15,701 bases of DNA, taken from positions 1-15,701 of the forward strand of contig JAEORO010000022.1 in assembly GCA_016840855.1 (NCBI GenBank), read 5' to 3'. Below the pieces are notes generated by a model. It saw nothing but the letters and a program-made list of their open reading frames with translations, made no database searches and was not told the origin of the DNA. Positions 61 to 10,713 of this stretch are shown here, in pieces; position 1 is the first letter of the stretch, and each line of letters starts with the position of its first letter. This DNA is from Candidatus Thorarchaeota archaeon (GTDB taxonomy: Archaea; Asgardarchaeota; Thorarchaeia; Thorarchaeales; Thorarchaeaceae). A program made the position numbers and the translations under genes.

Positions 61-108
61 GCCTATGTCGTGAATTGCGTTTAGACACAGACTCTGGAGA
101 GTTTGATA

Positions 109-1143
109 ATGGGTTCAGAAGCAGAAGCAGCGGACATGTTCAAGTGTCCTGTCTGCAATGGAAACGTAAAGACCGGACCCGATGACGTTGTAATTACTTG
201 TACGTATTGTGGTAGCACCACAACTATTGAAGGAAAAGCGATTGGCGATCACTTAATGGAAACTGCTGTTGATACGGAAGCGCGCACAGAAGGTTTCCGC
301 AACTTTCTCGACAAAAACAAGGGGATGAACAAGGCTCTTGTTAAAGAGGCGCAAGTCACAGAGAATCGTCTAATCTATGTTCCAGTCTGGACTGCAAGAG
401 TAAAGGCTGATTCATACTACAAGGGTTACAAAACCGTCCAAGTTCCGGTACAAAAGACAAGGACTGTCAGGGATTCTGATGGTCACACAAGAACTGAAAC
501 CTATACTGATTACGAAACAGGATACGTACCTGTGCAAGATGAGATTCATACAGACACTGATGAACCTCTCTTAGCTAGGAAAGGTGCTAGGTTTTATGGT
601 CTTGAGGACTATCTTAAAACCGTCAACCTGAGTCATACAGTACCTTATGATTTTGAGAAGATAAAAGATCTCGAACCAGCTATCTTGAATGCAGAGATTG
701 GTTCAGAGGAGTTTGAGAAGGCAATCCATGGGCGTGTAGCTGACAGACACAGGTCTCAAGCCGCCAGTGGGTTGGCAGAGCTTTTCGATTGTAGAACAAC
801 AACCAGCGTGAGAGGTACAACCTACCTACAAGCTCCATTTTCTTTAGTACGCTACAAATACCAGGGAGACCTCTACAAAGCGGCAATTGATGGTAACACC
901 GGAAAAGTTGTTCTTGGAGAGATTCCAATCAGTAAAGGTCAGCGTGCTCTTTGGACAATCATTGGCCTAATTGGTGTTATCGTGGCTGGTGTTGGTGGAG
1001 AGCTTCTTTTCATGGGAATGAACGCAACCACTGACGATACCTTGTTTATGATAGGTGGGATTGCGTCTATAATATTAGGAATAATTATGACATTCTTTGG
1101 GTTCCGGGTCTTGATAATGACCGAACGGACCAAGAAGGGGTGA
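109..1143 (+). CDS. Zn-ribbon-containing membrane protein, YdjG-like (paralog 1)
   Basis: N-terminal CPVC...CTYC Zn ribbon, YVPVW motif, and YKAAIDGNTGKVVLGEIPISKG followed by two hydrophobic TM segments. This resembles Bacillus YdjG-type proteins as I recall them. ATG 109 is preferred over TTG 103 because GGAGAG (96-101) is SD-like. Confidence 0.75.
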   Translation: MGSEAEAADMFKCPVCNGNVKTGPDDVVITCTYCGSTTTIEGKAIGDHLMETAVDTEARTEGFRNFLDKNKGMNKALVKEAQVTENRLIYVPVWTARVKADSYYKGYKTVQVPVQKTRTVRDSDGHTRTETYTDYETGYVPVQDEIHTDTDEPLLARKGARFYGLEDYLKTVNLSHTVPYDFEKIKDLEPAILNAEIGSEEFEKAIHGRVADRHRSQAASGLAELFDCRTTTSVRGTTYLQAPFSLVRYKYQGDLYKAAIDGNTGKVVLGEIPISKGQRALWTIIGLIGVIVAGVGGELLFMGMNATTDDTLFMIGGIASIILGIIMTFFGFRVLIMTERTKKG

Positions 1144-1147
1144 TAAC

Positions 1148-2119
1148 ATGGCAAGATGTGCGTTTTGTGATGCAGATTTTCAAACAGGACCTGGAGACCT
1201 TTTACTAGTCTGCCCATATTGTGGAACCGCCCAAACAACAGACGGTGAAAAGTTCAAAGATCACTACATGATACGTGTACACTTTGATCAATATGAGTCG
1301 CAGACAACCCTTCTCGATTGGGTGTCAAAACAACTTGGTGCTCCTGCTGACCTACCTGTACAAGCAAAGTTCGTCCAAGCTCAACAGATCTGGTATCCAT
1401 TTTGGATAAGCAGAGTTGATGCGGATACCACCTATCGGGGTCTCGGAAGGGATGCCCATTTCCATAATGAGTGGCCACAAAGGAGAGGTGCTTACAAAAA
1501 CATCGAGTACTTCTGGAAACCTGAGTCAGGCCAGTTCACGAGAAGGCATGAAATCAATATAGCCGCCGTGAAAGACATTGATCCTGATATTCGTGGTCAC
1601 CCAATCCCAACACGAGCGAAGGAATTCTTTAGTCATGCTCATGCTGAAGAGTTTGATGGCAAAGTCTTGCATAGTAACATGACTATGGAGCAAGCGAAAG
1701 AAATGGCTAAACAGATTGCTATGGATAAACAGACCCAACTGATTCTGTCAGAAGTTGACAAGATTGAGTCAAGACAAGATCGAATTGATGTTGGTGAAAC
1801 ATTCCTGATTCATGTTCCTATCTGGGAGCTTGAGTATAGATATGGCAATCGAAAGTACAAGGCTTCAGTTTCTGCTCCGACTGGATATGTAATAGAAAGT
1901 AAATATCCCCGATCTATGGCGTTCAGAGCTGCAGGAATTGGTGTGGGTCTCATAATGCTGTTGATAGGCATTAGCCTAATCGCTCTAGCTCTTGATTTCT
2001 TTGGAATCGGTGCGATACTGCAAGGTGGCGGTCTGATTTCAGGCGGTCTTCTATCAGTAATTGGCCTAGTCTTAATGTATAAAGGTGCTTCTAGAAAGGA
2101 AGCCAAAGAGAAGGTGTAG
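1148..2119 (+). CDS. Zn-ribbon-containing membrane protein, YdjG-like (paralog 2)
   Basis: CAFC...CPYC Zn ribbon, WYPFW, HVPIW, YKASVSAPTGYV and two C-terminal TM helices, colinear with the upstream ORF. SD GGGTGA (1138-1143) overlaps the upstream stop codon. Confidence 0.75.
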   Translation: MARCAFCDADFQTGPGDLLLVCPYCGTAQTTDGEKFKDHYMIRVHFDQYESQTTLLDWVSKQLGAPADLPVQAKFVQAQQIWYPFWISRVDADTTYRGLGRDAHFHNEWPQRRGAYKNIEYFWKPESGQFTRRHEINIAAVKDIDPDIRGHPIPTRAKEFFSHAHAEEFDGKVLHSNMTMEQAKEMAKQIAMDKQTQLILSEVDKIESRQDRIDVGETFLIHVPIWELEYRYGNRKYKASVSAPTGYVIESKYPRSMAFRAAGIGVGLIMLLIGISLIALALDFFGIGAILQGGGLISGGLLSVIGLVLMYKGASRKEAKEKV

Positions 2120-3491: not shown

Positions 3492-5102
3492 TTGAACGAG
3501 TCCTCTGAGAAAGAAGTCAATTCCGTAGTCGAAAAGAATTCAAGTGGAAAGATTAAGATATTCAGTAGATGGCTTGATGGGAATCGAGGTTTCGTTACAA
3601 TCCTCATTACTGCTATTGTAGCAACAGGTGCTTCTTGCGCTTATTATCTTTTAACAATGCTTTCATATACAAACCCCGGATTTACATTGGATGATTCTTG
3701 GATTCACCTTCAGTTTGCAAAAACTATCTATGAGGGGACTCCTTGGGAATATTCACCTGGTTACCCAAGCACTGGTTCGACTAGTCCTCTTTGGTCTTTG
3801 ATTCTCTCATCTTTATTCTATATATACTCAGACCCCATTGGTCTCGCATGGGGCGTCTACATTATCTCAATTTGCTTCTACATTGCGTCATCTTTTGTAG
3901 TTGGTACGATTGTAAGTAATTACACTCAGAGCGTTACCTGGGGCGTTCTTGCAATCATTGGCTTTGTTATAATACCTCGAAACACATGGCTAATGCTTTC
4001 TGGAATGGAAACGCCACTGTTTGTTTTTGCTCTACTGATTTCAATCATAGTATTAGATAGAGTCGAAACGAAATATGACCTTCTTCTGGGAATACTAGTT
4101 GGAGTGGCTTATCTCTCAAGACCTGAGGGGATTATTGTTGCATTTGGTGTTCCAATCAGGTTTCTTATTCTAGGTTACAAACGAAAATTAAACAAGACTC
4201 GAATTGTCACTCTATTCGTATCTGCTGGTTTGGCTGCGTTGGTTGCATTACCATGGATCTTGCATTGTCTAAGTGTTACTGGATTACCACTTCCCGATAC
4301 ATTCTATGCAAAAGTACATACTCCATCTGAATCAGAAATTGATGCATGGAATTTCTGGTGGACATTATTTGTCAGACAGATGCCTTTCCTCCTTTTGGGA
4401 GTATTTCTAGGAATAATATTGATTGTGAAAGGAAAGCCCTTCCCATGGTTGTTTGCTGTGGTTCTAACAGTCTTATATAGACTCAGTGCTCCCTACGCAT
4501 CATTGATTAATAATAACCGATACCTTCTTCCAATATTCGATCTCTTCTATATTGTTGCAGTAATCTCTGTAGCTTGGACTCTTGAAATCGTTCTTGTCGG
4601 AATATTTCATTTCGTAAAGAGTCCAGATGTTAAACTCATAGCAGTTACTTTCACATTATTCATTCTGATTATTCCTCTTATTCCGTCCTTTATTGACCAA
4701 GCAACTTACTATGGAAGAGCAGTCAAGACAGTAAATGATTTGCATGTTAACATTGGTTACTGGATGGCAGAAAATACTCCGGAAGATGCTGTGTTTGCTA
4801 CCCATGACGCAGGTGCTGTTAGATTTATTTCAAACAGGTCCATGATTGATCTGGCTGGTCTGGTAAGCCCTGATATCATTCATGGAAACATGACTCCTAG
4901 AGAAACGTTGTCTTATTTGCGTGAAAAGGGTTGTACATATTTTGTGTACTTCAATGATTTGTTTTATTTCTGGACACTATTCCTTCCATCTGCTGCTTAT
5001 GAGATGGTCTACACTGTTACGATTCCACCTGAGGTTCACGTTGGAGGAGGCAGACCGACGATGTCTGTTTATCAGATTTTTTGGGAATACACTAGCTATT
5101 AA
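3492..5102 (+). CDS. Polytopic membrane glycosyltransferase, GT-C fold (ArnT/PMT/AftB-like)
   Basis: More than 10 hydrophobic segments. DDSWIH acidic motif after TM1, plus TGSTSPLW, SGMETPL, RPEG, PDTFYAK, DAGA and DLAGL. TTG 3492 follows SD-like GGTGGGAG; the ORF is open from 3465. Confidence 0.7.
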   Translation: MNESSEKEVNSVVEKNSSGKIKIFSRWLDGNRGFVTILITAIVATGASCAYYLLTMLSYTNPGFTLDDSWIHLQFAKTIYEGTPWEYSPGYPSTGSTSPLWSLILSSLFYIYSDPIGLAWGVYIISICFYIASSFVVGTIVSNYTQSVTWGVLAIIGFVIIPRNTWLMLSGMETPLFVFALLISIIVLDRVETKYDLLLGILVGVAYLSRPEGIIVAFGVPIRFLILGYKRKLNKTRIVTLFVSAGLAALVALPWILHCLSVTGLPLPDTFYAKVHTPSESEIDAWNFWWTLFVRQMPFLLLGVFLGIILIVKGKPFPWLFAVVLTVLYRLSAPYASLINNNRYLLPIFDLFYIVAVISVAWTLEIVLVGIFHFVKSPDVKLIAVTFTLFILIIPLIPSFIDQATYYGRAVKTVNDLHVNIGYWMAENTPEDAVFATHDAGAVRFISNRSMIDLAGLVSPDIIHGNMTPRETLSYLREKGCTYFVYFNDLFYFWTLFLPSAAYEMVYTVTIPPEVHVGGGRPTMSVYQIFWEYTSY

Positions 5103-5117
5103 TTGTATTCACAAATG

Positions 5118-5124
5118 CTTAAAT
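5118..5124 (+). promoter_or_regulatory. Putative TATA box (CTTAAAT) for the YbjN-like gene
   Basis: Identical to 54-60 and about 37 nt upstream of TTG 5161. SD GGAGG lies at 5149-5153. Confidence 0.4.
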
Positions 5125-5160
5125 CGACCAATCCTACCTCATCGTTTTGGAGGAAGTAGA

Positions 5161-5616
5161 TTGGTTGATGTATGGAACCAAATCGAGGAATATTTGGACC
5201 TCCTTAATATGAAGTATTATTGGAATGAGGAAGATGGAGTCTTTGAACTCGTCTTTAGTGAAAGGAAGGACGAAATTTCCGCAAGCGAATCGACGGAGGA
5301 TGATGCTTTATCATTCAAGTATACAGTTTTCATCAAACCTGGCGAAAAATGGGTTCAGGTCTATGCTGCCGTATATCCTTTCAGCAATATCCCTGATGAG
5401 AAGAAACAATCTGTAATACTTGATTTACTACACGCAAATAGAAAATATGCGGAAGTTTGTTTTGATTTTGATGAAACTCGGGGATGTATTGGTACATCTC
5501 AGGAGATGATGATTAAGGGCTTGAATTTTGATGTGTTTCGCGAAGAGTTTCTCGCTGTACCCTGGGCGGTCAAGAAATTTTGGACAGAGATAGCCAAGAA
5601 GCATGGTTTGCAGTGA
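5161..5616 (+). CDS. YbjN-like / type III secretion chaperone-fold protein (151 aa)
   Basis: Small acidic alpha/beta protein with pattern IEEYLD..helix, three strands, LLHANRKY..VCF.FD and a C-terminal amphipathic helix. True start is probably TTG 5161 after GGAGG; the ORF-track start 4921 overlaps the upstream gene by 182 nt. Confidence 0.65.
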   Translation: MVDVWNQIEEYLDLLNMKYYWNEEDGVFELVFSERKDEISASESTEDDALSFKYTVFIKPGEKWVQVYAAVYPFSNIPDEKKQSVILDLLHANRKYAEVCFDFDETRGCIGTSQEMMIKGLNFDVFREEFLAVPWAVKKFWTEIAKKHGLQ

Positions 5617-5674
5617 ACGACCGAGCAATTGCAAATAATAACTGACTCATTGTTTTTCTACAATCTGGACGAGA

Positions 5675-6877
5675 TCACTGAATTATCAGACGAACCTCAT
5701 TCACTAATTTCTTGTATAGTTCTACAGGATTCTCAACATCGACAAACCCTCCAGTAAATATCTCTCCTTTACCGCCTCCTTTTCCTCGAAGTTGGAGCAT
5801 GGGTTTCTGAATATATTCTGAGGCTTCCAGAGGGACTTTATTGACCTTAAGTAGCACCTGCGATTTTCGTCCCGGAGAAAAAAGAAGAATAATTGTTGGT
5901 TCTTTAGGTAGCATTCTATTTGCTAAGATCTTTAATGAACTTGGATCATAACCAGGTAGATATTCATGTTGATAATCGATGGTTCCAATATGTTCTATTG
6001 TTGAACCACTAGTTAACATCTGTGTGACCTTCTCAATCAGCATATGTTTTTCATCGATAGCCAGTTTTGCTTTATCTAGAACAGTGCCTAATTGTTCCAT
6101 CTCAAATGGATAGGAATTCTTTCTTTGGAAAGCCATGTTATATGAATTGATAACGTGGACTTGTGCAGCCAATCCTGTTATGAACTCAATTTGTGTTGCA
6201 TTGTCATTTGTTTTCACATCAATCACTTTGAAGAATCCAATATCTCCTGTTTTAGGAACATGAATACCTGAACAAGCAGAGCTATCCACTTCGCCGACAC
6301 TTACAACACGAAGCTGATCATATTTGTCTTCAAGCCCCTCACGTTTCCTGATAGACGAATCAATTTGATCTGCATCTACAAAATGACTTCTAACAGGCAA
6401 ATCCTCTTCGATTATTCTCATGAGTTCTAGTTCTGCTTCGAACACTTTTTCAATATCTAATTCAACACCTACAATTTCTACGGACCCATGTTTCCCATCT
6501 ATCCAAAGGGTTCCCACAGTAATCTCTTCAAACTTCTTTTTGATGCTTGAAACAAATAGATGCTCAGCAGTATGGTTCCTCATTAAGCTTGAACGCCATT
6601 TCATATCGATTTCAAGAAATCCTTTACTCTCTCGTTTCGAAGACTCATTGGAAACTAGGATGACACCATCTGAGTCACCAATTGTGTCAATGATATCTAT
6701 GGTTCTGTTGCCTATCGTGAGCTTTCCCTTCTCACCTGCCTGTCCCCCTCCCGCAGGTCTGATTACATTTTCTTTGATTAGAATGTGAAAGAGATCGTCA
6801 ACTCTCTTAACTGATGTAATAGAGACCTCGAATTTATTCAGCTGTTGATTATTCCAATATGGTGGGATTTCGTTCAC
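5675..6877 (-). CDS. alaX: Free-standing alanyl-tRNA editing protein, AlaX-L type with C-terminal DHHA1/C-Ala domain
   Basis: GGGQ motif, Zn-binding HTAEH and CSGIH, C-terminal GKGGGK. GTG start preceded by SD AGGTGA. Confidence 0.9.
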   Translation of the reverse strand: MNEIPPYWNNQQLNKFEVSITSVKRVDDLFHILIKENVIRPAGGGQAGEKGKLTIGNRTIDIIDTIGDSDGVILVSNESSKRESKGFLEIDMKWRSSLMRNHTAEHLFVSSIKKKFEEITVGTLWIDGKHGSVEIVGVELDIEKVFEAELELMRIIEEDLPVRSHFVDADQIDSSIRKREGLEDKYDQLRVVSVGEVDSSACSGIHVPKTGDIGFFKVIDVKTNDNATQIEFITGLAAQVHVINSYNMAFQRKNSYPFEMEQLGTVLDKAKLAIDEKHMLIEKVTQMLTSGSTIEHIGTIDYQHEYLPGYDPSSLKILANRMLPKEPTIILLFSPGRKSQVLLKVNKVPLEASEYIQKPMLQLRGKGGGKGEIFTGGFVDVENPVELYKKLVNEVRLIIQ

Positions 6878-7048
6878 TGACTTTCACCTTTAAAACCGTG
6901 ACCGTATTCAAATTGATGTGGATTAGTTTCAAAACTTTTTCTTAATGCTACATTAATCCCCACTAGTACAACTCTATCTGCCGAAACCGATATAGCATGT
7001 GCTGATTGATGTACATGCGCTCAGAATTTCAACTCGAGGCGATAATCC

Positions 7049-8299
7049 ATGTTCAAATTTCTGAAGACTGATCCAGCAAAGAAAGCTAAGAAATACATCG
7101 ATAAAGCACTAATTGAAATTGAAGAAGGGTACCCTGAATATGCAAGTGTGGAATATGAGAAGGCGGCTCGTTGCTTTCTTGAAATTGAACAGACTGATTT
7201 TGCTGTCAAATATTTTCGCGAAGCTGCATATTGTGCACTTGAGAAGAATAACCACACTCGATGCTCTGAGATGAAGGTTGCTGCTGCTGAATGCCTACTC
7301 CAAGAAGGAAGATATGATGAAGCTGGAGGACTCTATTCAGAATCGTCAGATCATCTTCACCGAGAGAAAAAATCTAAGGAATCAAACAGATCTTTAGGTG
7401 TGGCAATTGCAGGTTATCTATCTGCAAGAAACTTCAGCACAGCAATAAATTTGATGCGCAAGGCTGAGAAAAGGCTACAAGAAACATCATCAAAGAAAGA
7501 CCCTATATATGTTCTAGCCGAGCTCTGTGTGAAAATTCTATGTGAAGGTATTGATATTCCATCAGATCAATTTGAAAATGCTGCGAAAGACATTAGACCT
7601 AGCTCTTTTGAAAAACCTCTTTTTGACTTTCTTATCGCCTCGACAAGACTCGCTATCCAGACGGAGATTGTTCTAGATTGGGCTGGGGCTAAACAGAAAG
7701 AGGTGAATGTCAAAGAACCCATAGAGATTGAACTTAGATACAAATGTCCTGTTGAAGTACATATTATTGATCATAGACTAACACTCTCAAATAGCGTTAT
7801 AATGATAAAAGAACCAGAGTACACCTTAAGCCCATCAAAAGAAGAATCATGGTTGCTTGAATTCAAACCTGTACTAAGTGGAGAGGGAAGCATCGGACCA
7901 TTCACAGTTACTCTTGAGGGTGATAAGGTCCTAGTCAATAAACATACCAATACCCTAAACTTTCAGATTGCTAAAGCTCCATCTAATCTACAACTAGAAG
8001 TATCCCCAGAAAGAGTTTCATGCAACCTTGGAGATGAAGCAATCCTACAGGTGAATGTTCTTAATGTAGGTGATGGGCCAGCAGAGAATATTGAAACAAA
8101 GATAGAACTCTCAGATGGACTCGAGCTTTCACTAGGAAATGAGGCTAAACTGATTCACTTCTTAGGTAGTGGCGAAAAAGTGCATATCCAGATTTTTGTA
8201 AGAGCTGTTGGTCAAGGGGAAGAATTAGTTACCATTAAAGCAATGGACGGTCGCACAGGACAGGAAGTAGTTAAGACATCAATGGTCAGAGTAGGATAA
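7049..8299 (+). CDS. Alpha-SNAP/TPR-like helical-repeat protein fused to two Ig-like beta-sandwich domains
   Basis: aa ~10-200 are helical with an exact 20-aa period (AA 39-40, 59-60, 79-80; SS 99-100; AI 119-120). aa ~204-308 and ~312-416 have alternating beta patterns, including the CARDB/DUF11-like VNVLNVGDGPAENI. No signal peptide or TM segment. Confidence 0.7.
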   Translation: MFKFLKTDPAKKAKKYIDKALIEIEEGYPEYASVEYEKAARCFLEIEQTDFAVKYFREAAYCALEKNNHTRCSEMKVAAAECLLQEGRYDEAGGLYSESSDHLHREKKSKESNRSLGVAIAGYLSARNFSTAINLMRKAEKRLQETSSKKDPIYVLAELCVKILCEGIDIPSDQFENAAKDIRPSSFEKPLFDFLIASTRLAIQTEIVLDWAGAKQKEVNVKEPIEIELRYKCPVEVHIIDHRLTLSNSVIMIKEPEYTLSPSKEESWLLEFKPVLSGEGSIGPFTVTLEGDKVLVNKHTNTLNFQIAKAPSNLQLEVSPERVSCNLGDEAILQVNVLNVGDGPAENIETKIELSDGLELSLGNEAKLIHFLGSGEKVHIQIFVRAVGQGEELVTIKAMDGRTGQEVVKTSMVRVG

Positions 8300-8301
8300 T
8301 A

Positions 8302-9069
8302 CTACCCAGCTTTCCTCTTCTTTCGCTCAGTTTCTGACCTGATACTAAGACAAGCACTCATGACCTGCTCAATTGCTTCCTCCTCTTCAAATGCCCTAAG
8401 CATATCCTCAGCATCATCTAAATTGTTGTCAGTAAGAGCTTCACTGAAAGATAGAAGAGTTGCAAGCCAATCCCATCTAGTTTTTGTGATAATCTTCTTA
8501 GCTTTCTCGATTCGCTCTTTCGCCTTGTTCATCTTCTCAATTGTGGCAAAACCCATAGCTGCGAGAGATAGGTTGATCACAGCTCTCTCCGCGTTCCCAT
8601 CATCTATTGCCTTGTCTGCAGCTTTGTCATATAGATTTCCCATATTCTCTGCAGCAGTGAGGAAATATGTACGATTCCCTGTCTTGTGACACGAATAAGC
8701 CGCCCATAGATAGGCTTGAGCAGCAGTTTCTGTCATCCTCTCAAGAAGCGCTTCTTTTGCCGCATTTTCATAGAGAGTCAGTGCAGTCGAAAAATCACTT
8801 ACCTGTCGATATTGTGTAGCAGCTTCGAGATATGCTGTGGCTGCAGCACGATGATCATCATGCTCAACTCTATCCTCTGCATACATGTGATAATACTCTG
8901 CAGCTTTCTTAGTCATTTCAAGTACTCTATCAAGAAAACAGCTTGCAGCGTTTTTGAACTGGTTTGCAGCTTGATAGTATTTCTCAGCCTCGAGAAACTC
9001 ATTGGCTAATCGTTCCCATTGAGAACATTCGTCTTCCACGTTATCTCGACCTGCCTGTGATTCACTCAT
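8302..9069 (-). CDS. Alpha-SNAP (Sec17)-like helical-repeat protein
   Basis: All-alpha and Ala-rich, with repeats A-x-x-x-Y-x-x-A-A at 20-aa spacing (Y60, Y80, Y100, Y120), e.g. RAAATAYLEAATQY. Function unproven. Confidence 0.7.
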   Translation of the reverse strand: MSESQAGRDNVEDECSQWERLANEFLEAEKYYQAANQFKNAASCFLDRVLEMTKKAAEYYHMYAEDRVEHDDHRAAATAYLEAATQYRQVSDFSTALTLYENAAKEALLERMTETAAQAYLWAAYSCHKTGNRTYFLTAAENMGNLYDKAADKAIDDGNAERAVINLSLAAMGFATIEKMNKAKERIEKAKKIITKTRWDWLATLLSFSEALTDNNLDDAEDMLRAFEEEEAIEQVMSACLSIRSETERKKRKAG

Positions 9070-9410
9070 GCAGACTCTTGTATGAGTCTGAACAGGTTAT
9101 GCGTAAAGTGACTGTGCGCTACAAAAATGTAGCTCCGATGTAGAAAGTTCGATTTATCGATACATACAGCAATATCGATTACTATCTTTTAGATATTCAA
9201 TCAACTAACATAGTTCTGTGTAAGGTTTCTTACATTACCTATTATTACTATATACTTACAAAATCTTCTAAGCTTACGTGTAATTTAAATACAAGTTACA
9301 TATATACAATGCATCGAGCTATGTAGGTTTCGCTTTATGGGAGCGGTGTAAGAGAAGTTGGAGAGAACTAGCCCTGCTGGCTAAATCCTTTTCCATAATT
9401 GGAATCAACT

Positions 9411-9436
9411 TGTCGGGAGCCGTTTGGTTCCCGACA
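9411..9436. terminator. GC-rich stem-loop downstream of the HMG-CoA reductase gene
   Basis: TGTCGGGAGCC-GTTT-GGTTCCCGACA forms an 11-bp stem, with one G-U pair on + that is an A-C mismatch on -. It lies 14 nt from stop 9451 and is followed on + by TATTTTCT. The hairpin is certain; its role is not. Confidence 0.55.
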
Positions 9437-9450
9437 CCATCTATTTTCTG

Positions 9451-10713
9451 CTACCTCTGGATCTCTTCTAGAAGCTCTTTTGCTCGTTCAACTTTTACAT
9501 TCTTTTCTTTGACCAGTTTTTCTGCAATGATGTCAACAAGGTCTCCTCGAGCCCCTGCAGTAGCTGCGACATTGCGTGCATGAAGTGCCATGTGCCCTTT
9601 TTGAATGCCTTCAGAAGCTAGTGCTCGAAGTGCAGCAAGATTCTGCGCAAGACCTACACTAGCAATGACGTGGCCTAGCTCCGTAGCAGTTTTCACACCA
9701 AGAATTTTCACACTCGCCCTAGCTGCAGGATGTACTTTGGTTGCCCCACCAACAAGACCTACCGCCATAGGAATCTCAATACTGCCGACAAGATGTCCTT
9801 CTTGCGACTTTTCATACTTGGTGAGTGAGCTATATCCATTCATCGCTGCATAGCTATGAGCACCAGATTCGATTGCTCGGAAGTCATTTCCAGTAGCAAT
9901 TACCACGGCATCAATTCCATTCATTATACCTTTATTATGAGTAGCGCAGCGATAAGGATCAGCTTCAGCAAACGCCCATGCAGCAATAATGTCATTTACG
10001 ACCTCTTCGCCGCCAAGCAGTTCTTTGTCGAAAGTCGCACGTGAACGAACAAGTCTAAACTCAGCGAGGTTGGATAAAATTCGTAGGATGACTCTTCCCC
10101 CTGTTATTCTCTCAATTCTTGGTGCAAGTGCCTCCGCCATGGTATTCACAGCATTTGCGCCCATTGCATCCCGGGTATCCACTATTATCTCAGTAACAAG
10201 CATAACTCCTACTTTGGAGTCGAAAATACGCACGCGGAGATCTTTTGCACCGCCACCAAAACGAACGAGAATTGGATCTTGTTCATTTGCAAATGCGAGA
10301 AGATCCTCTTTTACTTCCATTATCTTTAGTTTCGCAGATTCGGGGTCGAGAACATTAATGGTCTGGATTTGCGCTATCATGTTTGGTCCTGTGTCTGTAG
10401 CAGTAAAACCGCCATGATCTCTCGCCATTCTAGCGGCATTACTGGCTGCTGCAACAACTGATGGCTCTTCAATGGCCATAGGGATTAAGTAGTCCTTTCC
10501 ATTGATTAGAAAATTAGTAGCGATGCCAAGTGGTAGTGTCATTGATCCAACAACATTCTCAATCATATGGTCGAGAACACCCATATCCACCATACCTGGA
10601 TCAACTAATGGCTCCAGTTCCTCATCACTTAGTCCTGTGACTTCTTTCAGCTTTTTGACTCGTTCCTCTCTAGAGAGTTTATAGAAACCTGTAATCCTGG
10701 AGTCGTCAACCAT
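9451..10713 (-). CDS. mvaA: HMG-CoA reductase, class II
   Basis: ENVVG, IEEPSVVAA (catalytic E83), DAMGAN, ILSNL, THNKGIMNG, GNDFRAIE and GIQKGHMALH. SD GAGGT upstream. Confidence 0.97.
   Translation of the reverse strand: MVDDSRITGFYKLSREERVKKLKEVTGLSDEELEPLVDPGMVDMGVLDHMIENVVGSMTLPLGIATNFLINGKDYLIPMAIEEPSVVAAASNAARMARDHGGFTATDTGPNMIAQIQTINVLDPESAKLKIMEVKEDLLAFANEQDPILVRFGGGAKDLRVRIFDSKVGVMLVTEIIVDTRDAMGANAVNTMAEALAPRIERITGGRVILRILSNLAEFRLVRSRATFDKELLGGEEVVNDIIAAWAFAEADPYRCATHNKGIMNGIDAVVIATGNDFRAIESGAHSYAAMNGYSSLTKYEKSQEGHLVGSIEIPMAVGLVGGATKVHPAARASVKILGVKTATELGHVIASVGLAQNLAALRALASEGIQKGHMALHARNVAATAGARGDLVDIIAEKLVKEKNVKVERAKELLEEIQR

Follow-up and report, generated by a model that had tools for sequence, protein, structure and literature searches.

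A SNAP-like helical domain joined to tandem Ig-like domains in a candidate scaffold protein of Asgard archaea

SNAPs (alpha-SNAP, gamma-SNAP and Sec17) are built from 14 helices, and to our knowledge the SNAP/Sec17 family is treated as eukaryote-specific. We know of no published list of Asgard 'eukaryotic signature proteins' (ESPs) on which SNAPs stand. Ig-like domains of the DUF11, CARDB, BatD and MG types usually occur in secreted or surface proteins, and BamD-type proteins are outer-membrane lipoproteins. Here we describe P0001, a 416-residue protein in which a SNAP-like helical domain is followed by two Ig-like domains. It is encoded in a stretch of 15,701 nucleotides from Candidatus Thorarchaeota archaeon (contig JAEORO010000022.1 of assembly GCA_016840855.1), analysed as a whole and hereafter called the window.

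We read P0001 as a soluble, Asgard-restricted binding scaffold or adaptor, with a probability of roughly 0.55. The groove of the helical domain would hold a helical or coiled-coil partner, by analogy with SNAPs and the SNAP-derived HAP40, and the Ig tandem would offer a second protein-binding platform. The short hydrophobic and basic N-terminus of the non-Loki lineages may aid membrane seating or partner docking. No publication was found that describes a SNAP-like protein of Asgard archaea, or a relative there of the large TRAPP subunits; in the supplementary ESP and asCOG tables of Eme et al. (2023) and Liu et al. (2021), the family might be entered as a TPR or adaptin-C2 protein. The word 'SNAP' does not occur in the main text of Eme et al. 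(2023).

A SNAP-type repeat domain followed by two Ig-like domains

Among 5.8 billion proteins searched, 181 were homologues of P0001 at E≤1e-3. The 120 of them that are listed share 53–93% identity with it and are mostly exactly 416 residues long, and those carrying a name are assigned to Thorarchaeota, Sifarchaeia, Promethearchaeota and Hermodarchaeota. The start codon is ATG, and the translation holds both peptides quoted in a preliminary description of this DNA. Contigs of a related strain differ from P0001 mostly at codon position 3: of the 39 differences listed inside the open reading frame (ORF), 34 fall there, a further 10 differences being unlisted. The homologues and the third-position bias of the strain differences together indicate that P0001 is a real gene and under purifying selection. 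A lone contig of 174 nucleotides at 7878–8051, from one metatranscriptome, is too little to claim transcription.

An AlphaFold2 model built on a 27-sequence alignment (mean pLDDT 91.8, pTM 0.76) has ten helices over residues 9–204, followed by beta-sandwiches at 206–308 and 314–415; modelled separately, the beta tandem reaches a pLDDT of 94.1. The helical half begins with seven helices of 17 residues at a spacing of 20 (9–144) and ends with three shorter ones (152–204). No membrane helix or signal peptide was found in P0001, the highest 19-residue Kyte-Doolittle mean being 1.42 at residue 152, inside the solenoid. Because the hydropathy scan gives neither, P0001 is predicted to be a soluble, cytoplasmic protein. 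The preliminary description, which had seen a SNAP/TPR-like solenoid of about 200 residues and two beta-sandwiches with neither signal peptide nor transmembrane anchor, is thereby confirmed.

The hydrophobic start MFKFLK, to which the same description had drawn attention, is present and conserved. The N-terminus is basic with a few hydrophobic residues, and the start MFKFLKxDPxKKAKK is nearly invariant within Thorarchaeia, where K6, D8, P9, A13 and K14 do not vary among 27 sequences. Of 13 diverse family members, eight have a comparable hydrophobic and basic start, which the five Loki/Hel-type ones lack; in the model, residues 1–5 have a pLDDT below 50. In seven of 20 family members, residues 1–21 (7049–7111) weakly match DUF6435, whose members are small and have no assigned function (best E 0.00083), a match that may reflect the short motif M-F-x-F-L-K-x-D-P-x-K-K.

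P0001 marginally passes the cut-off of the Pfam SNAP family (PF14938; 25.9 bits against 25). The family matches at E≤1 in 19 of 20 diverse members, and among 12 distant members nine match at E≤0.01, two of all 12 scoring above the cut-off. Since ordinary TPR proteins, too, set off the Pfam SNAP model (in 4 of 14 control genomes), a profile of 20 diverse family members was run against all 177,635 PDB sequences. The best eight were all SNAPs (E 3.1e-12 to 2e-8), with gamma-SNAP at 3.1e-12, Sec17 at 3.9e-11 and alpha-SNAP at 3.9e-9 to 2e-8. The first sequence other than a SNAP was a designed TPR at 2.6e-5, a gap of seven orders of magnitude. Used as a single query, P0001 had gamma-SNAP as its sole PDB match below E 0.1. 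The hidden Markov model (HMM) alignment pairs positions 45–181 of the profile with Sec17 130–265 and thus passes beyond the repeats into the SNAP C-terminal bundle. As a control, a Pfam-SNAP-positive protein of 291 residues from the same genome (contig C21) was searched in the same way; it found LGN and consensus TPRs, and no SNAP stood in its PDB list.

Structures were compared with VIA in two ways, by re-ranking of Foldseek matches and by a search independent of Foldseek. The re-ranking placed Sec17 at Z 15.4 (root-mean-square deviation (rmsd) 3.9, 201 residues aligned), gamma-SNAP at Z 14.8 (rmsd 2.7, 187 aligned) and HAP40 at Z 13.3–13.5 (180–187 residues). Judged by sequence comparison, the helical half is a SNAP-type repeat domain, and SNAPs are its closest characterised relatives.

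The two sandwiches gave less specific matches. In one family member, P0138, the first sandwich scores 24.9 bits with BatD (cut-off 24.1), and its residues G283 and P284 are invariant in 20 diverse sequences. For the second sandwich, VIA returned MG and CARDB-like domains at Z 11.7–13.7 (rmsd 1.9–2.3, about 100 residues aligned), among them a lacto-N-biosidase domain (Z 13.7), an MG domain of C3 (Z 13.2) and the CARDB structure 3idu (Z 11.7, rmsd 2.3, 98 aligned). BBS9 (6vbu_9) appears in the VIA lists at Z 10.9–11.5 among many unrelated Ig domains. In a set of 1.84 billion representatives, the matches outside the family are long DUF11/CARDB multidomain proteins, which match at E 4.9e-8 to 1e-3 and cover only residues ~270–410 of P0001. 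At E≤1, eight of the 20 members match DUF11 (the best at 0.0059, which is under the cut-off) and two match CARDB; further Ig-type matches under threshold fall, among the same number of members, to TRAPPC13_C (5), TRAP_beta (4), BatD (4), Alpha_adaptinC2 (4) and Transglut_C (2). Such a scatter over related Ig-like families is typical of what a generic E-set domain would give. The beta-tandem profile found only FimG among PDB sequences (E ~1), with no TRAPP or adaptin chain at E≤10, and an NCBIfam search of P0001 gave noise only. The sandwiches are generic Ig-like domains, the first BatD-like and the second DUF11/CARDB-like. A fusion of two common folds, which the preliminary description had offered as an equal alternative, therefore fits better than its proposal of a TRAPP- or adaptin-like protein, since the helical half is closest to SNAPs and the second sandwich to DUF11/CARDB.

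The 20-member profile matches 384 of 400 Asgard genomes at E≤1e-5, and strong matches (E<1e-20) occur in 277 of the 400 and in 16 of 33 families. The profile had no match in one further family, made up of four small genomes (1.3–1.4 Mb). Distant full-length representatives are 17–30% identical and 410–441 residues long; their labels are Hod-, Prometh-, Ran-, Heimdall-, Odin- or Helarchaeota, and the others map to Asgard loci. Wherever a full-length relative is named, the name is an Asgard one (Thor-, Sif-, Prometh-, Hermod-, Hod-, Heimdall-, Hel-, Ran- or Odin-), and the representatives without a name map to Asgard loci. No full-length relative outside Asgard archaea was found among the 5.8 billion proteins and 1.84 billion representatives searched, and within these collections the P0001 family appears Asgard-restricted. 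Among the findings that the preliminary description had named as speaking against its proposal was a wide occurrence of the same fusion outside Asgard archaea, which was thus not seen.

In five weak-match genomes that were examined, the matches were to single domains, except for one frame of 673 residues with both domain kinds (L063/L067; genome G055, contig C4, 495877–496740). This frame, from a genome in which the canonical form is lacking, matches the helical part (profile 26–154) and the second sandwich (316–393), and may be a longer, divergent relative.

Weighing the readings of P0001

Several observations weigh against P0001 as a SNAP-type binding scaffold. Binding is putative, and the protein is a candidate scaffold. 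To the readiness with which the Pfam SNAP model fires must be added a high bias term in the HMM match to gamma-SNAP (13.7 of its 34.6 bits). In the Foldseek-independent VIA search, gamma-SNAP (Z 12.0, rmsd 1.9, 148 aligned) ties with the TPR proteins Rpn and LGN/Pins (12.1–12.3), HAP40 standing at Z 11.4; by the tool's own warning, helical repeats easily reach Z 12–14. In a language-model comparison, the named clusters lying closest to the helical half consist of archaeal TPR/SNAP-Pfam proteins from Bathyarchaeota, Nitrososphaerota and Methanobacteriota (all <0.9), and SNAP-like repeats thus occur beyond Asgard archaea as well. Gene context gives no clear functional lead either. In a scan of 11 loci from outside Thorarchaeia (90 of 110 ORFs), the neighbours are metabolic, with an AMP/thymidine-phosphorylase-like gene within 2.5 kb in all seven Loki-type loci, and Rag/Gtr1-like GTPases stand near the homologue in only two of the 11. 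Finally, the N-terminal motif, to judge from the Loki/Hel-type members that lack it, cannot be essential to core function.

Some of these points would also suit an ordinary, lineage-specific TPR-Ig protein unrelated to membrane traffic, such as an assembly or quality-control factor or a regulatory adaptor, in which the SNAP likeness would reflect a shared long-repeat subtype of TPR. We hold this to be possible but doubtful. The generic Ig matches, the parity of plain TPR proteins with SNAPs in the Foldseek-independent search, the housekeeping or metabolic neighbours found everywhere and the SNAP-Pfam-positive TPR clusters of other archaeal phyla are consistent with it. It is opposed by the seven orders of magnitude between SNAPs and other TPR proteins of the PDB, a gap that the control protein of contig C21 does not show, and by an alignment that runs on from the repeats into the SNAP C-terminal bundle. 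If P0001 were merely an ordinary scaffold, it would be of modest interest.

A bolder alternative makes the helical domain an archaeal sister or ancestor of eukaryotic SNAPs, linking a Cdc48/NSF-type AAA+ ATPase to helical-bundle substrates at a membrane. The helical half would then be an unrecognised Asgard counterpart of SNAP/Sec17, and the protein an adaptor of ancestral type recruiting a Cdc48/NSF-lineage AAA+ unfoldase to such substrates, with the Ig tandem in place of the NSF-binding tail. We consider both the general proposal and this specific form of it unlikely. In its favour, SNAPs are the closest solved sequences by the margin given above, the alignment enters their C-terminal bundle, Sec17 and gamma-SNAP are the best structural matches, many lineages have the hydrophobic and basic N-terminus, and the family is widespread in Asgard archaea. 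Its presence in about two thirds of the sampled Asgard genomes and a helical domain nearest to SNAPs make it a concrete candidate for experiments on the origin of membrane-fusion accessories; were the proposal true, the SNARE-recycling adaptor would join the trafficking parts with Asgard roots.

The anatomy of the domain speaks against such a role. The best SNAP alignments cover Sec17 89–292 and gamma-SNAP 86–275, so that the region of the first ~85 SNAP residues is missing and the domain corresponds to about the C-terminal two thirds of a SNAP (residues 86–290 or so). The complete SNAP body, including the N-terminal hairpins with their membrane-inserting hydrophobic loop, is not seen in P0001 with its ten helices and ~200 residues; the hydrophobic and basic start that eight of the 13 members carry is a different feature. 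Nor does P0001 have the free C-terminus of a SNAP, as the chain continues into the beta-sandwich at residue 206. In alpha-SNAP, according to PMC2139964, NSF stimulation is hardly impaired when as many as 160 N-terminal residues are deleted, which, together with what is generally held of SNAPs, suggests that it is the C-terminal part on which the action on NSF depends. Since the NSF-engaging end is replaced by Ig domains, P0001 cannot work as a canonical SNAP. Its own genome, which is 92% complete, has no SNARE-domain match (PF05739) at E≤1, a search that divergent SNARE-like proteins could escape, and SNAP-Pfam-positive TPR proteins appear common in non-Asgard archaea.

The preliminary description had itself proposed that P0001 is a small-scale precursor or analogue of large TRAPP subunits or of adaptins, acting as a tether or coat scaffold with Bet3, longin or GTPase proteins. 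The domain order, solenoid then Ig-like, does recall the large TRAPP subunits. The top match of the whole model in Foldseek is a yeast TRAPPII chain, 7u06_A (E 8e-11), with 7u05_A at rank 5; 7u06_A has 1106 modelled residues and is presumably Trs120, an assignment we make from remembered subunit lengths, as the tool gives the chain no name. A language-model search gave leads under threshold (0.75–0.81) to clusters of TRAPPC8, TRAPPC9 (Trs120) and TRAPPC11. TRAPPC13_C reached 4.8e-5 in the best of its five family members, under the cut-off, and the Rag/Gtr1-like genes beside two of the 11 homologues point the same way.

The likeness largely dissolved once the domains of P0001 were tested one by one. 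P0001 superposes badly on 7u06_A (TMq 0.31, rmsd 21.6 over 616 columns). When the beta tandem is searched by itself, 7u06_A falls to rank 36 and 7u05_C stands at 47; ciliary Ig/ASH proteins, RbmA, transglutaminase and CEP192 are ahead of 7u06_A, and unrelated Ig tandems and TRAPPII chains lie inside a 100-fold band of E-values. In three VIA lists, no TRAPP, adaptin-ear or COPI appendage chain is among the matches listed (50 per list). Trs120, Trs85 and Trs130 start with a GTPase-like fold, according to PMC9106297; this fold is absent from the model of P0001, whose helices begin at residue 9. The ten families that P0001 matches at E≤1 include none of TRAPPC8/9/10/11, in a library without PF26254 (Ig_TRAPPC9-Trs120_1st) and TPR_TRAPPC9. 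In six-frame searches of its own genome at E≤10, Ig_TPPC8 (PF24545) had no match and TRAPPC13_C (PF23643) found nothing on the P0001 gene; Alpha_adaptinC2 (PF02883) likewise had no match there, its sole match in that genome (E 0.5) lying elsewhere, and its best value in the family (0.0088) is under the cut-off. A Bet3-type TRAPP core (PF04051) was not found at E≤10 in this 92% complete genome, the control genomes also being without a match at E≤0.01, and V4R (PF02830) gave only noise at E 0.1. The tandem profile that met no TRAPP or adaptin chain in the PDB points in the same direction, as does a bacterial lead considered below, which suggests that a similar fusion may have arisen independently.

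Homology of P0001 to TRAPP or adaptin subunits is not supported, as the TRAPPII ranks fall for the sandwiches alone, the GTPase-like fold is absent and none of the TRAPP or adaptin families searched reaches its cut-off. The TRAPPII top match and the TRAPPC8/9/11 leads arose from domain order alone, which calls for caution with whole-model matches of this kind. P0001 is not a TRAPP large subunit nor an adaptin, and it resembles such subunits only in domain order. Homology to them is already largely refuted, and we regard a precursor or analogue of either as very improbable.

Gene features and surroundings

The coordinates of P0001, its domains and its nearest neighbour are collected in Table 1.

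Table 1. Features of the P0001 gene and the adjoining gene, in window coordinates.
Feature	Position	Strand	Description
Whole gene P0001	7049..8299	+	416 aa, stop codon included; SNAP-like and tandem Ig-like protein
N-terminal hydrophobic-basic motif	7049..7075	+	Residues 1–9, MFKFLKTDP, followed by a lysine-rich stretch
SNAP-like helical-repeat domain	7073..7663	+	Residues 9–205; from Pfam SNAP, PDB profile search and structure
First beta-sandwich, BatD-like/E-set Ig-like	7664..7972	+	Residues 206–308; family-wide invariant G283-P284
Second beta-sandwich, DUF11/CARDB/MG-type Ig-like	7988..8296	+	Residues 314–416; N-x-G-x-G-x-A-x-N-I motif
Neighbour P0002	8302..9069	-	255 aa, all-helical, SNAP/TPR-like; tail to tail with P0001; Pfam SNAP 28.2 bits

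The window is archaeal, and its genes include Nre, a class-I-type HMG-CoA reductase, an AlaX-like editing protein, a class II aminoacyl-tRNA synthetase, MGMT, Usp and RACo. The neighbour P0002 resembles P0001 only weakly (E 0.002), and in the PDB it matches alpha-SNAP without reaching significance (E 0.22). P0002 is restricted to Thorarchaeia, where it occurs in 78 of 85 genomes of one family (f1) and in the only genome of another (f2); elsewhere there are only weak partial matches. The two genes adjoin, with match ends less than 100 nucleotides apart, in 72 of the 76 f1 genomes for which both places are given, and in f2 P0002 lies 6.7 kb from the P0001 gene. A predicted complex of P0001 and P0002 scored 0.00, which gives no verdict and is uninformative either way. 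Synteny around P0001 is kept only within Thorarchaeia, where local synteny is generally high.

Further observations concern genes elsewhere. At the start of the window, the adjacent genes 103–1143 (+) and 1148–2119 (+) belong to no family, show weak hints of an N-terminal zinc ribbon and keep their synteny throughout Thorarchaeia. The first matches the orthologue of the second in locus L039 at 26% identity, and the two look like distant paralogues. The Gtr1/RagA-like genes mentioned above lie on the same strand as the family member and just upstream of it, at 9432–10376 (-) in L046 and at 3824–5386 and 5510–6418 (+) in L056, where two small unannotated ORFs (135 and 86 residues) intervene. These genomes are GTPase-rich, and the adjacency may be due to chance. 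The 291-residue LGN/consensus-type TPR protein of contig C21 (L001, 1141–2833, minus strand), the best Pfam SNAP match of its genome, bears a strongly acidic tail and lies directly downstream of a gene for a small-GTPase-like protein of 233 residues in the same orientation.

Near-identical DNA to positions 6900–9100 (at least half of the sampled words) occurs, among the matches listed, in 13 metagenome runs labelled marine sediment, estuary, mangrove, soil or plain metagenome; the 20 runs listed for this region stem from six studies. A strain co-occurring there differs mainly at synonymous sites.

Comparison with known systems

A language-model atlas gave a lead (0.75) to a bacterial cluster of 433-residue YfiO/BamD + DUF11 proteins in Thermodesulfobacteriota, which are similar in length to P0001 and likewise join a TPR-type domain to DUF11. 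Because BamD-type proteins are lipoproteins of the outer membrane, this is probably an independent, extracytoplasmic fusion. DUF11, CARDB, BatD and MG domains resemble the second sandwich in both fold and sequence, and the first reaches the BatD cut-off in a single member; in contrast to their usual setting, the sandwiches of P0001 sit behind a SNAP-like domain in a protein without an export signal.

With the large TRAPP subunits (Trs120/TRAPPC9, Trs130/TRAPPC10, Trs85/TRAPPC8 and TRAPPC11), P0001 shares a solenoid followed by Ig-like sandwiches, but these exceed 1000 residues, against 416. HAP40, the SNAP-like partner of huntingtin, offers the parallel of a SNAP-fold protein that serves purely as a binding scaffold; it is eukaryotic and has no Ig domains, and no match to P0001 was seen at the level of sequence. 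SNAPs themselves share with P0001 about 40 residues per helical hairpin, and its three shorter terminal helices align with their C-terminal bundle. The SNAP-like domain of P0001 is nevertheless shorter, with ten helices against 14 and ~200 residues against ~290, and carries two appended Ig-like domains.

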